Positions 20,183-25,885 of a stretch of 39,513 nucleotides of DNA are shown one piece after another. This DNA is from Oscillospiraceae bacterium (GTDB lineage Bacteria > Bacillota > Clostridia > Oscillospirales > Ruminococcaceae), in assembly GCA_045133675.1 (NCBI GenBank), contig JBGUUS010000084.1:1-39513 (forward strand). Direction: 5' to 3'. The position numbers and the translations under genes were made by a program. Within the stretch, counting starts at the first letter, position 1; every line of letters begins with the position of its first letter. Below the pieces are notes generated by a model, which did no database searches, had not been told where the DNA came from, and worked only from the letters and a program-made list of their open reading frames with translations.

Positions 20183-20529
20183 CGCAAAAACAACCTGACG
20201 GCGCTTATGAGCATAACTGCGCCGAAAATACGCTTGAGCAGATCCGGGCGGATGCGGCTAAGAAGATATGCGCCGAGAAAAGCACCCGGCAGACCTGCGG
20301 CGGAGGCGAGAAGCAGATCGGGGATGCTGATCTTCTGTCCGGAAAAAAGCAGCAGGAACGACGTGATGCACGAGAGCGGCAGGGTGACGGCGATGGAGCC
20401 GGCGTGCGACTGCTGTGCGGTGAGACCGCATTTTTGCAGCATCGGTACGGCAAGCAGACCGCCGCCCGAACCGAATATTCCATTGAACAAACCGGCAAAC
20501 AGCCCGGCGAACAGACAGCGAAGCTTCAT
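20179..20529 (-). CDS. Half-size TauE/SafE (TSUP) sulfur-compound transporter
   Basis: NGIFGSGGG.LAVP motif; ATG at 20529 after AAGGAG; ATGA overlap with the next gene. Confidence 0.75.
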   Translation of the reverse strand: MKLRCLFAGLFAGLFNGIFGSGGGLLAVPMLQKCGLTAQQSHAGSIAVTLPLSCITSFLLLFSGQKISIPDLLLASAAGLPGAFLGAYLLSRIRPDLLKRIFGAVMLISAVRLFLR

Positions 20530-20593
20530 ACGATCAACTCCTTGCAAAGGTAAACGGCACATTCTGTCAGTAGAATGTGCCGTTTGATTCATT

Positions 20594-21298
20594 TTATGCA
20601 AGAAGCGTGTTTACTGCCCATGAGGCGAGAAGCAGACCGGCGGCCGGCGGACAAAAGCTGATGCTTGCCGGAGAATGGCGGCCGTTTTCCGAAGAAGTGA
20701 TGACCTGACGCGGCAGTTCGGTGGAAAAAAGCACCGGCTGGCGGTGGAGCTCACGCTTTTTGAGCTCGCGGCGCATGACCTTTGCAAGGCCGCATCCGCA
20801 TCCGGCGGTATCTTCGATCACGCCGATTTTAAATTTGGAGGGATCAAGGCGGTTGCCGGTGCCCAGACAGGTGATGCACGGGATGTTCCGTTCGCGGCAG
20901 GCCGCGGCGAGATCGAGCTTTGAGGTGACGGTGTCGATCGCATCGATCACGAGCATTGGCTGATGGGAAAAGAGAACATCGCGGTTTTCGGCGCTGTAAA
21001 AATCGTCGACGACGACCGTTTTGCAAAAAGGTGCCGCCTGCGAAAGGCGGTTTGCGGCCGCTTCGGTTTTCGCCTTGCCGATCATATCGGCGGTTGCGAA
21101 CTGCTGACGGTTCAGGTTCGTAACATCCACGGTGTCGTGATCCATCAGAATGAGCGTGCCGATGCCGCAGCGAGCGAGCGCTTCGGCACAGCTGCCGCCG
21201 ACACCGCCGAGTCCGACAACGGCAACGCAGGCGTTTTGCAGTTTCTGCACCGCGTCATCGCCCAAAAGCGCGCGGGTGCGGTCGAGTGCGTGCTGCAT
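20594..21298 (-). CDS. tcdA: tRNA threonylcarbamoyladenosine dehydratase (ThiF/E1-like)
   Basis: VGLGGVGG, DHDTVDVTNLNRQ, IDAID, GTGNRLDP, LAKVMRRELKKR, FSTE. Confidence 0.9.
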   Translation of the reverse strand: MQHALDRTRALLGDDAVQKLQNACVAVVGLGGVGGSCAEALARCGIGTLILMDHDTVDVTNLNRQQFATADMIGKAKTEAAANRLSQAAPFCKTVVVDDFYSAENRDVLFSHQPMLVIDAIDTVTSKLDLAAACRERNIPCITCLGTGNRLDPSKFKIGVIEDTAGCGCGLAKVMRRELKKRELHRQPVLFSTELPRQVITSSENGRHSPASISFCPPAAGLLLASWAVNTLLA

Positions 21299-21335
21299 AT
21301 ATCAAAACTCCTTTGCAAGAGAAATCGATAAAAAC

Positions 21336-21358
21336 AAAAGGGAGACCGAAGTCTCCCT
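21336..21358 (-). terminator. Intrinsic terminator of the 6S RNA
   Basis: On the minus strand: AGGGAGAC-UUCG-GUCUCCCU followed by UUUGUUUUU. Confidence 0.8.
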
Positions 21359-21362
21359 CTTG

Positions 21363-21550
21363 GATCCGCCCTGCCGTTTAATGTGCAGTAAACTACAAAC
21401 CCGCAGTCCAGCAGGTGGGAACCTCCTTGCTGCTTTTGCGCTCCCAACGTCCGCATAAAGCGGGAGGTCTGCATCCCCGGCAGAAGAGTCCGGTTCCCGA
21501 TAATATAAGTGTTGGATTTATATTATCCGCACGACGCACAGGGCAGAAAT
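21363..21550 (-). ncRNA. ssrS: 6S RNA
   Basis: About 185 nt with paired ends (UCUGCCCUG/CAGGGCGGA); contains the CCAACAC..GGGAAC..CCCACCUG..GCGGGUU..AACGGCAGGG pattern typical of clostridial 6S; followed by a terminator. Confidence 0.85.
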
Positions 21551-21612
21551 AAAACGGTTTCACCGTTCGGGTATCAGTATATCCCGAACATTGCGAAAAA
21601 ATGCCCGGAAGT

Positions 21613-21918
21613 TTATTCTTCTTCCGTGTTTTCGAAGAGATCTGCAAGTCTCTCGAGGAACATACGGCCGACGCGCTGATATTCTTCTTCATCGTCGATG
21701 GAGATCATCATCTCTTCTTCGTCGTTGCCGTCGCTTTTTAATACAACGAGCTCAGCATCGTCATCGAGCAGGTCTTCCGGCTGCTCGTAATACGGCATCA
21801 GAGCGAAATAACGGTCGTCGCCGATTTCCATAACGTCGAGCAGTTCAAAAGCCTGTTCCACGCCTTCTTCGTCAACCAGGGTGAAGATTTCCGGATTGTA
21901 ATCCATTTCGTTGGACAT
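21613..21918 (-). CDS. DUF1292 domain protein
   Basis: FTLVDEEGVEQAFELLD...YFAL...SIDDEEEY; very acidic; RBS AAAGGAGG. Confidence 0.88.
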   Translation of the reverse strand: MSNEMDYNPEIFTLVDEEGVEQAFELLDVMEIGDDRYFALMPYYEQPEDLLDDDAELVVLKSDGNDEEEMMISIDDEEEYQRVGRMFLERLADLFENTEEE

Positions 21919-22067
21919 AATGTGTCCGCCTCCTTTATAAAACGGTGCAAAAATTGATGCACCATAGATTTCTATTTTAATAGTAACAACTTTGGAATGC
22001 AATGTCAAGCGAAAAAATTTTGTTGTTAATTTTAAATAAAACAGCGAAAAAATTTTTCGAAAAACTG

Positions 22068-22096
22068 TTGACAAACCTGTTGACCTGTGGTATATT
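22068..22096 (+). promoter_or_regulatory. Strong sigma-A promoter driving the 22.1-23.1 kb transcript
   Basis: TTGACA (22068-73), 17-nt spacer, TATATT (22091-96) with TG extension, and an A/T-rich UP-element-like region upstream. Confidence 0.8.
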
Positions 22097-22495
22097 ATAA
22101 CCAGGATAAGAGAAGGGAACGAAGAGAACAGAGAAGACCTTCATAGGATCCTCAAAAACTGAATACAAGGAGGAACAGCATAATGTGCTTTGACGAACCG
22201 ATCGGCCAGTTCCGTATGGTAAGAGCACAGAGCTGCATCCGCTGAGTAAAAAGAATATCGGAGTAAAACAGAAGGCAGAGATCCTTCGACCGATACAATC
22301 ACAACGATTAGAACTTACTGGCGGATTGCACCGAAGCCGAAAGGCCGATCCGCTCTTACCATACTAAAACGAAAAGCGGCACATCCGCCGCAAAAACACC
22401 GGATGTTAGGATATAAATCAAAGGTATCCAAAAAACAGCCAGTGAAAGGAGAAAAGGTGATACCCGATGTACAGCTGATCTGTATAATCGACCAT

Positions 22496-23040
22496 TTCAA
22501 AAGAAAAAGGTGTTACCAATGAAATAGTCATGGCGGCCCCAGAATTTCATCCGTGAAACGAAAAGGACCACAATGTTGACAAATGTGAAAACTTTCGTGT
22601 AAGCCAATCATCGACCGTAACGAAAGGATGATGACGATGTTCACAACCAGAGTGCTCATTGAAAAATCGGAAAGGAGACAATCCACCGAAAGTCTTCACC
22701 CGTAAGGGAACCATGGCAGCCAATAGGGTGTCATGGAATAAGTAGGGCCACATCGTTATAGTAAAAAAACAAATCTCAGGTAAAAACCATAAATTCAAAA
22801 AGAAATAGGTGTTACCAATGAAATAGTCACGGCGGCTCCTGACCATTCTATAAAGAAAAGGTGAGTCCAATGTACTAAAAAGCTTTCGTTCGACCCATAA
22901 CGAGCCAACGAAAGGACGATGACGTATGTACAGTAAAAGAAAGGTTACACGAGCAGAAACGGCAAAGAGGAGTTTTTCCACCGAACACGCTCGCCCGTAA
23001 GGGAGCCCGATGAAGGTCGGGCAGAAAAACATCCGTCATA
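22496..23040 (+). repeat. Two diverged tandem units (~22496-22760 and ~22794-23040, offset ~299 nt)
   Basis: AGGTGTTACCAATGAAATAGTCAYGGCGGC at 22508 and 22807 (29/30 identical); CTTTCGT, ACGAAAGGAYGATGACG, TCCACCGAA and CCCGTAAGGGA occur in the same order in both units. Confidence 0.85.
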
Positions 23041-23061
23041 GGAAATCAAAACTGAATAGCT

Positions 23062-23093
23062 AAATGAGCCGCCTGAGAATAGGCGGCTCATTT
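23062..23093 (+). terminator. Hairpin terminator closing the candidate RNA
   Basis: AAATGAGCCGCCT/AGGCGGCTCATTT 13-bp perfect stem; the U-tract is short. Confidence 0.7.
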
Positions 23094-23120
23094 CGTCTTA
23101 GTGAAAAAGGAGGTAGTATT

Positions 23121-23717
23121 GTGAAAAAAAGAATATTCGCTGTATTGGCTGCCTTGATCCTCCTTTTTATTGCATGCAGCTCAGCGCCGGAAGTCGAATA
23201 CGGTCCGGACGTGGAAAATCCGTATCCGGAAGTGCGGGGTCCTGCTTTGGGTTGTCCGATGCTGATAACACCGCAGGAGATGCTCAAAGACGGTGGCTCT
23301 TACGTGGAGGGCGTTATAAAAACGATCAATCCGCCCACGACAAAAGAAACGAAAGCTGAATGGTTTGAGGTACTGCTGGACAAAAATCCGGATGCGAAAT
23401 TGCCGGATACTACGTATTATTCTTTCGATTTCGAAGTGAAACGTGTGCTTGCCGGTGAGAAGGTACCCAATGAAATCACTGTGTATACCATTTTTCAAAG
23501 TGCGCTCCCTCCGGAAATGAAAGAAGGCGACCGGTTTGTTGTTGGGATAGAAGCATCGGAAACGGAACATACATGCAGTTTATTGAACGTTTTTGATTCG
23601 TTCTACTACATCTCCGAGGAAAACCGCATATATCCCGGCTGTCGTTTCGGCTATTCGTTAGAGTGCACCGGAATGACGGTGGATATGTTCAAAGATGCGC
23701 TGAACAAAAAAGAATAA
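23121..23717 (+). CDS. Lipoprotein of unknown function
   Basis: RBS AAAGGAGGT, GTG start, signal peptide with lipobox FIAC. Confidence 0.8.
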   Translation: MKKRIFAVLAALILLFIACSSAPEVEYGPDVENPYPEVRGPALGCPMLITPQEMLKDGGSYVEGVIKTINPPTTKETKAEWFEVLLDKNPDAKLPDTTYYSFDFEVKRVLAGEKVPNEITVYTIFQSALPPEMKEGDRFVVGIEASETEHTCSLLNVFDSFYYISEENRIYPGCRFGYSLECTGMTVDMFKDALNKKE

Positions 23718-23728
23718 GGACAATTCAG

Positions 23729-23765
23729 CAAGAGGACATCGCGCCGTGTCCTCTTGTCTTTTTTA
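23729..23765 (+). terminator. Intrinsic terminator
   Basis: CAAGAGGACA/TGTCCTCTTG stem followed by a T tract. Confidence 0.8.
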
Positions 23766-23812
23766 TAAAAATCGGGTATGATAGTAGCAGACCATTGCAA
23801 AGGGGTTTTTTT

Positions 23813-25576
23813 ATGGCACTTGACGGTGCATTCTTATATCTCACCGCCGCCGAATTGCGCGAAACGCTGATCGGCACACGCGTTGAAAAAATCGCACAGC
23901 CCTCAAAAGAGGAGCTTGTGTTCACATTCCGCCTGCGCGGCGGAAGCAAAAAGGTGCTGTTTTCGGCAAATGCGGCAAGCCCGCGCGTCCATTTCACGCA
24001 GATTCCGCTGGAAAACCCGAAAACACCGCCGATGTTCTGTATGCTTCTGCGCAAGCATATCGGCTCGGGCAAGCTGCTTGCTATTCACCAGGACGGGCTC
24101 GACCGCATCCTCTCGTTCGATTTTGAGACGGTCAACGAGCTGGGCGATACCGTCGTCATCACGCTGACGGCGGAGATCATGGGACGTCACTCGAACCTCA
24201 TTCTGATCAATCACGACGGCCGCATCATCGACGCGATCAAGCGCGTATCCGACGAGGTTTCGAGTGTTCGAACGGTTTTGCCGGGCGGAACGTATAAAAA
24301 ACCGCCGGAGCAGGACAAACTCGATCTCATCACTGCCGAGGACAGCGAGATCATGCAGCGGTTTCTCGCGCTCCCGGGTATCGACTGTGCAAAATCGCTG
24401 ATGCAGACGCTTTCGGGCATTTCGCCGATTCTTTCGCGTGAGGTGATCTACCGCGCGCTCAAAGGACAGGACATCGACAAGCCGCGCCTTTCCGAATACT
24501 ACAAAAACCGCATCCGTGAGGAGATCGCACAGCTGCGTGACCGGCTGAAAACGGGCGAAACGGAGCTTGTGACCGTACTGGATGAGGAGAAAAAGATCCG
24601 CGAGTTCACGATGTACGATATTCAGCAGTACGGCGCGGTCGAAAAGAAAGAGACGTTCGCTTCGCCGAGCGAGCTGCTCGATCAGTTCTATGCCGAGCGC
24701 GACCGCGTTGCGAGAATGAAGCAGCGTTCGCACGATCTTTTGAAGCTGCTGCTCAACGCGACCGACCGCATCACGAAAAAGCTCGCACTGCAGGAGGAAG
24801 AACTCCGCACCTGCGCCGACCGCGAACAGCTCCGCATCTGCGGCGATCTGTTAAACGCGAACCTCTGGCAGATGACGAAGGGTGACCGCGTGGTAACGGT
24901 GCAGAATTTCTATGAGGAGGACTGCCGCGAGATCGAGATCAAGCTGGATCCGCGCCTGACCCCGGCGCAGAACGCGCAGAAATACTATTCCGAGTACCGC
25001 AAAGCTGCAACCGCAGAAGATATGCTCAAGGATCTGATGGCAAAATCGCGGCAGGAGCTCGAATATCTCGACAGCGTGTTCGACGCCGTTTCGCGAACCG
25101 AAGGCGAGAGCGAACTGCTTGAGATCCGCGAGGAATTGGCGGAACAGGGTTACATCCGTCTGCCGAAGAAGCAGAACCGGATGCTCAAGGCACAGCCGCC
25201 GCTTGAATATATCTCCTCGGACGGATTCACGATCCTCTGCGGCAGAAACAACAAGCAAAACGACAAGCTGACGATGAAGATCGCGAAGAACTACGACCTC
25301 TGGCTGCACACGCAGTCGATCGCCGGTTCGCACGTTATCGTCATCGCCGACGGAAAAGAGATCCCGGACCGCACCATCACCGAAGCGGCGATCATTGCGG
25401 CGTATCATTCGAAAGGCCGCGAATCCTCGCAGGTTGCGGTCGATTATACGCGGATCAAATACGTCAAAAAGCCGGTCGGTGCAAAACCGGGCAAGGTGAT
25501 CTTCACCGATTACTACACCGCGTTCGTAACGCCGGATGAGGCGCTTGTTCAGTCGCTTTCGGCACAAAAGGCTTGA
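23813..25576 (+). CDS. rqcH: NFACT family ribosome quality control protein RqcH (FbpA/PavA-like)
   Basis: MALDG, PPMFCMLLRKHI, LDRI, EIMGRHSNLIL, NAQKYY, GRNNKQND.LT, WLH...GSHV, VKKP.GAKPG.V. Confidence 0.93.
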   Translation: MALDGAFLYLTAAELRETLIGTRVEKIAQPSKEELVFTFRLRGGSKKVLFSANAASPRVHFTQIPLENPKTPPMFCMLLRKHIGSGKLLAIHQDGLDRILSFDFETVNELGDTVVITLTAEIMGRHSNLILINHDGRIIDAIKRVSDEVSSVRTVLPGGTYKKPPEQDKLDLITAEDSEIMQRFLALPGIDCAKSLMQTLSGISPILSREVIYRALKGQDIDKPRLSEYYKNRIREEIAQLRDRLKTGETELVTVLDEEKKIREFTMYDIQQYGAVEKKETFASPSELLDQFYAERDRVARMKQRSHDLLKLLLNATDRITKKLALQEEELRTCADREQLRICGDLLNANLWQMTKGDRVVTVQNFYEEDCREIEIKLDPRLTPAQNAQKYYSEYRKAATAEDMLKDLMAKSRQELEYLDSVFDAVSRTEGESELLEIREELAEQGYIRLPKKQNRMLKAQPPLEYISSDGFTILCGRNNKQNDKLTMKIAKNYDLWLHTQSIAGSHVIVIADGKEIPDRTITEAAIIAAYHSKGRESSQVAVDYTRIKYVKKPVGAKPGKVIFTDYYTAFVTPDEALVQSLSAQKA

Positions 25577-25601: not shown

Positions 25602-25614
25602 AAAAGAGATATCG

Positions 25615-25885
25615 AACCGGCTTTGACGGGGAGGAGTACGTTTTATCCGGACGTACAGAGAGAAGATGGTTGGTGCAAATCTTCCGGCGGATAGGACAGA
25701 AGGTAGCCCCTGAGCTTTGAACCGAACGGCGCGCATGCGCTCAGTAGACTTCAACGGAATCCCACCGTTAACGGGGAAGCGGCGTATTTGCGCCGGACGA
25801 GTGCGGCATTTTGTGCCGAATTCAGGTGGTAACACGGAACTTTTCCGCCCTGAGCAATTTTGCTTCAGGGCGGTTTTCTTTTTTA
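25615..25885 (+). promoter_or_regulatory. T-box riboswitch (Val)
   Basis: AGAGA/GGTGC stem I motifs, probable specifier GTA (Val) at 25703-05, T-box AATTCAGGTGGTAACACGG at 25819, terminator GCCCTGAGC..GCTTCAGGGC plus T tract; lies upstream of valS. Confidence 0.92.

Follow-up and report, generated by a model that had tools for sequence, protein, structure and literature searches.

We have identified, in an Oscillospiraceae contig of 39,513 nt (the window, that is, the whole stretch of DNA that was analyzed), a transcription unit that is real, apparently expressed and apparently undescribed, and whose conserved feature is an ordered series of translation-start modules with immediate stop codons. 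It carries eight Shine-Dalgarno (SD) plus AUG modules, four of which are minigenes of two or three codons (MYS, MK, MK and MY); these eight SD-led small open reading frames (ORFs) overturn the statement, in an earlier reading made from the sequence only, that the unit holds no real gene. Ribosomes very probably read the modules, judging from conservation of frame and stop codons only. What the RNA does is a more tentative matter: at somewhat less than an even chance, we favor an undescribed multi-site RNA that would load and hold ribosomes, likely as a store or sink. The sequence-only reading had proposed an undescribed structured RNA with a dedicated function. A stand-alone, apparently expressed and conserved RNA outside Rfam is indeed what we find; the core of that proposal, that the overall fold is the function, is not supported, since sequence and length vary while the ordered start modules with immediate stops are kept.

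The transcription unit and its expression

The promoter hexamers, TTGACA (22068-22073) and TATATT (22091-22096), match the consensus at 11 of 12 positions, the best of five sites within 20500-24500, in agreement with the near-consensus, TG-extended sigma-A promoter proposed earlier; similar promoters head the units of relatives. The terminator claimed in the sequence-only reading is present as a 13-bp perfect inverted repeat, but the terminator search found too weak a U-run on the + strand at 23062-23093; in relatives, a hairpin with a U-run occupies the equivalent position. Inside 22103-23060, the longest sense ORF has 39 aa and none reaches 60 aa, and the A content of the unit is 37.9%, compared with 21.7%, 28.1% and 20.0% in three flanking genes, both as previously remarked. 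The two tandem units of about 300 nt that had been noticed align at 163 of 241 letters (E 1e-22); they are duplicated module blocks, whose folding is modestly above that of shuffles. The unit is present as a single copy in its own genome. The features are collected in Table 1.

Table 1. Features of the RNA unit and its neighborhood (positions in the window)
Feature	Position	Strand	Remarks
6S RNA, conserved neighbor	21359..21552	-	directly behind DUF1292
DUF1292 gene, conserved divergent neighbor	21613..21918	-	
Sigma-A-type promoter, TTGACA-17 nt-TG-extended TATATT	22068..22096	+	start predicted near 22103
Whole RNA unit, about 960-990 nt	22103..23093	+	RNA contigs of near-equal extent in three studies
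AAAACTGAATA element, first copy	22155..22165	+	also in rRNA operon spacers of relatives
Module A, strong SD and 20-codon leader ORF, AUG 22183	22167..22245	+	overlaps 5' arm of helix P1
Structured 5' domain	22195..22435	+	P1 22214-22226/22352-22364, inner helices, H-type pseudoknot 22376-22406
Minigene, SD and Met-Tyr-Ser-stop, AUG 22467	22455..22478	+	
Tandem block 1	22490..22788	+	block-to-block alignment
Minigene, SD and Met-Lys-stop, AUG 22519 (block 1)	22508..22527	+	
SD and 9-codon ORF, AUG 22573	22562..22602	+	aligns with Met-Tyr module of block 2
Module C1, SD and 22-codon basic ORF, AUG 22637	22623..22705	+	
Module D1, SD (GGAG) and CCA-CCG	22674..22688	+	CCA-CCG replaces CCR-AUG; no start codon
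Tandem block 2	22789..23060	+	block-to-block alignment
Minigene, SD and Met-Lys-stop, AUG 22818 (block 2)	22807..22826	+	
Minigene, SD and Met-Tyr-stop, AUG 22870 (block 2)	22859..22878	+	
Module C2, SD and 24-codon basic ORF, AUG 22926	22911..23000	+	
Module D2, SD and CCA-CCG	22969..22983	+	no start codon
AAAACTGAATA element, second copy	23048..23058	+	immediately 5' of the terminal hairpin; several relatives share this placement
13-bp end hairpin, probable terminator	23062..23093	+	perfect inverted repeat; weak U-run; RNA contigs end at 23041-23070
Lipoprotein-like gene between unit and rqcH	23121..23717	+	no Pfam or NCBIfam match

Twelve runs recorded as RNA, from three studies, contain the stretch, and contigs from five of them were compared, together with three runs whose kind is not recorded. 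Near-identical contigs extend over 22126-23070 (X1, depth 64), 22117-22962 (X2, depth 53; X6, depth 216), 22138-23041 (X9, depth 455; its loose ends resemble, and presumably are, library adapter) and, in three pieces, 22125-23060 (X3, depth 18-34). The neighboring 6S and DUF1292 genes are found in the same runs only as short pieces at a depth of 2-4.5, a sparse cover that is no proof of silence, the runs having been selected for holding the stretch. In runs X16 and X17, cover of the region is patchy, at a depth of 2-4, and extends across the predicted start. The unit is thus apparently expressed, but the data amount to a weak hint: contigs carry no information on strand, start or level, and the runs were themselves found by means of this stretch.

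A 161-aa ORF on the - strand was considered as a gene and rejected: it has no Pfam match, no ORF longer than 62 aa occurs on the corresponding strand of the nine relatives measured, and each of the five RNA-run contigs, like X15, has one extra base at 22893, inside the ORF. Two contigs have one base fewer at 22392. Either difference may reflect variation between strains or a slip in the assembly of the window.

The Rfam covariance-model search suggested earlier returned no family for the unit at the gathering score of Rfam 15, and none credible at E values up to 10. The absence of tmRNA, RNase P, SRP, intron, T-box and raiA matches at that score upholds what had been judged by eye; OLE likewise gave no match, and ARAGORN found nothing in the unit and no tRNA in the window. 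Across 40 related loci, Rfam found only the neighboring 6S RNA, tRNA, T-box, pemK and weak chance matches. The best matches to the unit (17-22 bits) were terminator-like or weak hits to rli47; the two to Rli47/SbrE (RF01478) scored 18.7 and 17.3 bits against a gathering score of 200 and lie on an A-rich SD-AUG motif. The RF01478 consensus has, like the unit, an SD-AUG at the matched place, with most of the model unmatched. According to PMC12596718, Rli47 is an antisense RNA of the sigma-B regulon that occurs only in Listeria sensu stricto. Elsewhere in the window, an ordinary T-box leader precedes a valyl-tRNA-synthetase-like gene (25614-25855, + strand).

Start modules and their conservation in the family

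The modules far exceed chance. Shuffled versions of the unit contain a mean of 0.75 SD-AUGs, 0.14 of them short, and four short modules were reached in none of 1000 shuffles; the strict motif with an early stop has four matches genome-wide, all four inside the unit. The modules have the composition of two-codon minigenes, namely SD, start, one sense codon and stop. The 9-codon ORF at 22573 looks, from its alignment, like a decayed copy of the Met-Tyr module. The SDs of the minigenes average -9.2 kcal/mol, compared with -10.9 for ordinary genes selected for having an SD, and that of module A, about 65 nt from the predicted transcript start, reaches -11.2 kcal/mol. A perfect extended complement to the 16S tail does not occur in any of 41 units, and in a single-sequence fold prediction the SDs have an unpaired probability of 0.20-0.46, that is, they are mostly paired.

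The divergent DUF1292 gene served as an unbiased anchor for picking regions in the family and was located in 29 of 30 genomes; the unit was judged present in 22 of these 29 and absent in 7. The 29 regions hold 85 SD-AUGs, of which 41 lead into ORFs of at most three codons, whereas shuffles gave 3.5 of 20, with a maximum of 10 in 200 shuffles. BLAST against 60 relatives found alignable homologs in only five and motif-size matches in three more, two of them arrays. A GTDB scan with a pattern of two motifs, in which no stop was required, returned 100 loci. Short ORFs of at most three codons follow 80 of 94 motifs in the 28 loci titled Oscillospirales or Clostridia (Ruminococcus, Oscillospiraceae, Acutalibacteraceae, Merdimmobilis, Clostridia and similar), compared with 0 of 25 in nine loci of other Bacillota and 11 of 150 in 63 non-Bacillota loci, mostly coding repeats, the loci having been grouped by record title after the motif results were seen and some of them duplicating genomes.

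We then compared 41 hand-bounded units, in which 92 of 161 CC-AUG modules are exactly two codons long. Their common order is promoter, leader ORF, folded spacer, minigenes, short basic ORF, AUG-less SD and hairpin, and the module blocks of relatives also duplicate in tandem. Of the 93 intervals between modules, 67 fall within 43-65 nt and the others are all longer, 13 of the 41 units coming from a pattern that fixes the spacing range; one array-like locus of the GTDB scan outside the 41 (L130, titled Defluviitaleaceae) has 39-nt spacing. The copy number ranges from 1 to 10 among loci; an array of five minigenes is present in a record (L106) of Merdimmobilis hominis, a cultured species. Stops are interchangeable (76 TAA, 31 TAG and 11 TGA in 118 modules), some modules start with TTG or GTG, and the second codon encodes at least 16 residues, dominated by Lys, Tyr and Glu, which differ between close relatives. 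Because stops interchange, second codons vary and starts alternate, the product looks unimportant and the start and stop important. The longer peptides are not conserved either: the leader ORF of module A keeps a length of about 14-26 codons in relatives but not its peptide sequence. Selection thus appears to act on ribosome engagement and not on the product.

The context of the start is also constrained. CC stands at -3,-2 in 78 of 86 short-ORF modules from 28 units to which no CC filter was applied, and CCR precedes the start in only 14 of 916 ordinary SD-led genes of the own genome. SD modules without an AUG occur 31 times in 23 of the 41 units, against 0.4 in shuffles. Around these fixed elements, primary sequence and unit length vary freely in the family, from about 350 to over 1300 nt. 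Since sequence diverges while modules persist, such a family escapes both gene callers and covariation screens.

Outside the family, the pattern revealed no arrays in an order-level sample of 301 genomes. Beyond the order, the strict pattern did not rise above control in 251 genomes sampled from the class, with 7 single-hit genomes and 7 hit by the control. Scanning viral sequences with the pattern yielded 13 stretches, which are for the most part coding repeats and include no array like the unit, and a second pattern scan gave 64 stretches, of which 59 were apparently chance and 5 carried a single module. In viral contigs L050, L058 and L061, two motif copies with 9- and 2-codon ORFs lie in non-coding sequence after a capsid-like ORF; they are probably unrelated to the unit.

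Folding is best supported at the 5' end. The whole strand has a fold z score of -9.55 against 20 shuffles, the 5' domain -4.65 and the repeat blocks -2.2 and -2.4. In six close homologs from about three lineages, five helices, in a model drawn from the query unit with one misaligned inner helix left out, keep 98.5% of cells paired, whereas slid controls keep 33-43%. Three pairs are altered on both sides, two of them in the stem of the H-type pseudoknot, which lends substance to the pseudoknot-like 5' domain proposed earlier. A metagenome scan for further homologs passed 4 of 120 loci through the first filter, of which the 2 complete ones were near copies of known sequences; the covariation therefore rests on six sequences in about three lineages. 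This pairing favors a structured 5' domain, as support and not as proof, and no sequence conservation of the domain is recognizable beyond the six close homologs.

A putative ribosome-loading RNA and the competing explanations

It can be supposed that a stand-alone RNA with a row of ribosome start sites would load several ribosomes side by side. The spacing, close to one footprint, and the variable copy number both suggest several ribosomes per RNA, with intervals of 43-65 nt corresponding to about one ribosome per module. A ribosome that terminates after one or two codons while still held by the SD would re-initiate or idle there, so that each module would retain one ribosome, tandem duplication would set the capacity, and the bound ribosomes would shield the RNA from RNase J. 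A ribosome translating the leader ORF would also open P1. Such a store or sink would probably act when growth slows; the sigma-A-type promoter gives no pointer to stationary phase.

We read the unit as ribosome holding because a ribosome on a strong-SD minigene is described as re-initiating without dissociating (PMC8708949), and because an SD-bound ribosome, even without a start codon, is reported to block RNase J1 (PMC5737220). This reading is weakened by SDs that are moderate, lack a perfect 16S complement and are predicted to be paired. In addition, minigene cycling is described as consuming GTP and as able to drain tRNA (PMC8708949), and storage therefore fits poorly unless the cycle is slowed.

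The CC(A/G) before the AUG might provide an extra small-subunit contact, either with the 16S tail 5' of the anti-SD or in the E site; possible pairing with the tail just 5' of the anti-SD has a computed mean gain of 3.7 kcal/mol. We also considered EF-P as the reason for CC(A/G). Although efp is present and the first two E-site bases are contacted, the available accounts are unfavorable, describing a preference for G at the E-site bases and no effect on initiation (PMC11611912, PMC12856214), and this explanation is weak.

The modules have precedents. The mini-ORFs of lambda bar, axe-txe, LEE1/LEE4 and ycbK likewise consist of an SD, an AUG, one or two codons and a stop, and known two-codon minigenes act, as we propose for the unit, through ribosome engagement and not through the peptide (PMC8708949); the phage lambda bar minigenes are also cited in PMC8012679. 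Unlike the minigenes described in PMC8708949, which are single elements in leaders or phage transcripts, the unit would be a dedicated chromosomal RNA that carries up to 10 modules at set spacing, each in a fixed CC(A/G) context, and whose transcript includes no downstream gene. STAB-SD or hbs-type blocks share with module D that some of their SD sites have no start codon; in the account of PMC5737220, however, a STAB-SD is one very strong 5' site before an mRNA, while the unit has many internal moderate sites.

This comparison leads to the first alternative, which we consider improbable but which fares best of the rivals: that the modules are STAB-SD-like stabilizers or chaperones and that the folded domain, which would bind a partner, performs the real function. 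It would draw on the block of RNase J1 by SD-bound ribosomes (PMC5737220), on the stabilization of mRNAs in cis by minigenes (PMC8708949), on the covariation of the 5' domain and on other non-coding units headed by a single module (L029-L031 and L206, described below). Yet the folded domain precedes most of the modules, and a 5' block at those sites would leave it unprotected; one block would be enough, whereas up to 10 copies occur; and the folded domain is unrecognizable in sequence past the six close homologs.

The prevalence of two-codon modules (92 of 161), with Lys, Tyr and Glu leading the second codon, would also suit a translation-stress sensor or tRNA sink resembling lambda bar, in which each ribosome would test a single codon, and a stringent or dormancy response would be set off by hungry codons or by drop-off of peptidyl-tRNA. 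Two-codon minigenes are described as the most toxic class (PMC8708949), and rqcH follows the unit in its own genus. We nevertheless judge a sensor distinctly unlikely: the at least 16 second residues change between close relatives, the AUG-less modules are left without explanation, and rqcH/NFACT is not the neighbor in other genera, where other genes occur.

Alternatively, the eight SD-led ORFs could form a polycistronic micropeptide mRNA whose 20-aa leader, 22- to 24-aa basic peptides and formyl di- or tripeptides are the active products. Synonymous changes in the leader peptide among close homologs, and an 'LIE' stretch that recurs in some module C peptides, point this way; but across genera the leader and module C peptides share length and composition and not sequence, an NCBIfam search gave no match, and the AUG-less modules yield no product, which makes this explanation highly unlikely.

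CsrB and RsmZ sponges carry repeated SD-like GGA motifs in hairpin loops, in variable copy number. A sponge of this kind, for a protein recognizing GG-N5-CC whose mRNA targets the AUG-stop would mimic, fits the short repeated motif, its variable copy number and a possible tiny GG/CC hairpin, clearest in the D modules. However, most minigene modules have GGUG instead of GGA, with an in-frame start and stop, and in the D modules the GGA sits in a possible stem and not in a loop. Targets are missing, since the motif stands at the start of only 1 of 916 ordinary genes, and protein binding does not need stop codons that interchange in frame; the chance of such a sponge is very small.

Least credible is an ornate RNA or ribozyme of the ROOL or GOLLD type, or a leader controlling the downstream gene, despite the size, A-rich linkers, fold z score and pseudoknot: the ROOL and GOLLD models (which we take to be RF03087 and RF02032) match neither the unit nor 32 related array loci, BLAST against phages and plasmids found nothing, neither sequence nor length is conserved, the following gene varies, rqcH has its own promoter-like site and the RNA contigs end at the hairpin, unlike a cis-acting leader or attenuator. 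ROOL and GOLLD are likewise large, A-rich and pseudoknotted, with a conserved multi-stem fold that assembles into homo-oligomeric cages, but they are described as encoded in phages and prophages, often near tRNA islands, and GOLLD is reported to pull down ribosomes (PMC12286853). The unit, by contrast, is chromosomal, between DUF1292/6S and rqcH, has no phage or tRNA link and apparently no conserved fold, an alignment being possible for the 5' domain of the six close homologs, and is defined by its start modules.

A search of the literature found single minigenes and STAB-SD elements and no bacterial RNA class of tandem start-stop modules, large supplementary candidate lists being outside its scope; that an unnamed earlier listing exists we think rather unlikely. 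If the unit holds ribosomes, a major gut anaerobe family would possess a means of storing them that is based on RNA. The invariant CC(A/G) before the AUG points to an unrecognized determinant of initiation-complex binding.

HPF, the neighborhood and related single modules

The hibernation factor HPF is otherwise near-universal. No HPF (PF02482) was found in the own genome (92% complete) or in single-contig genome G008, nor in 59 of 201 family genomes (about 30%; mostly 95% complete), whereas it was found in 11 of 14 controls. The strict core motif occurs in 19 of the 59 HPF-negative and 11 of the 142 HPF-positive genomes. A further set of DUF1292 loci was drawn for the most part from genomes in which the strict motif had no match; after 4 truncated loci were dropped, at least two modules were present in 15 of 27 HPF-negative versus 6 of 28 HPF-positive genomes (p 0.013). 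When the samples are pooled, 37 of 46 HPF-negative genomes have the unit, as do 20 of 44 that are HPF-positive (p 0.0009, kin not being independent); by genus, the figures are 18 of 25 versus 17 of 41 (p 0.022, a tree-free count); many unit calls were made by eye, and MAG gaps can hide genes. Nine genomes have neither HPF nor the unit at the locus, and 20 have both. The presence of the unit thus tracks the absence of HPF loosely, which we regard as a lead. Spo0A was found in 33 of 35 genomes, a distribution that does not follow that of the unit.

Ribosome buffering or preservation might relax the need for HPF, and the upkeep of idle ribosomes in HPF-less bacteria becomes directly testable if the unit holds ribosomes. 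The neighboring 6S RNA (RF00013) suggests an analogy, since 6S RNA mimics its substrate and thereby parks its machine; the two RNAs share no sequence or structure, and the proposed target of the unit is the ribosome. In its fullest form, the idea would be an RNA-based ribosome storage, a '6S RNA for ribosomes' back-to-back with 6S, with a dedicated CC(A/G) contact, allowing HPF loss in many Oscillospirales; we hold this extended version to be doubtful.

6S RNA also lies behind DUF1292 at 17 of 20 syntenic loci (5 below the gathering score) and was found at 7 of 12 array loci found by pattern. On the other side, the lipoprotein-like gene is missing from the equivalent place in close relatives. 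The element AAAACTGAATA, presumably a boxA-like antitermination element, occurs in 31 copies in 20 of the 41 units, compared with 2.4 in shuffles, and both true 16S loci that were examined have it in their rRNA spacer. A further copy lies between two tRNA-like sequences in the own genome (C65, about 9460, + strand).

Single modules were observed in other contexts. In the own genome (C43, about 10008, + strand), one module (GGTGAGTCCG-ATG) follows a promoter, in frame with a lipoprotein-like gene, and at L023 and L036 single two-codon modules precede secreted or lipoprotein-like genes. L029, L030 and L031 (about 1450-2200) carry a separate non-coding unit, in another family, about 350-680 nt long and without an Rfam match, which starts with one Met-Gly-stop module directly after the promoter. 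In L206, L213, L216, L232 and L239 (about 660-960), a prophage-like region is bordered by a conserved unit some 270 nt long, which combines a single Met-Tyr-stop module with a structured body and a terminator; in four of the five, the downstream gene is one that we take to be mreB-like. L018 and L038 (about 1500) have an SD and a Met-Phe-stop module, with a pemK RNA motif further on in L018, where the downstream gene is presumably of a mobile-element sigma-factor-like type.
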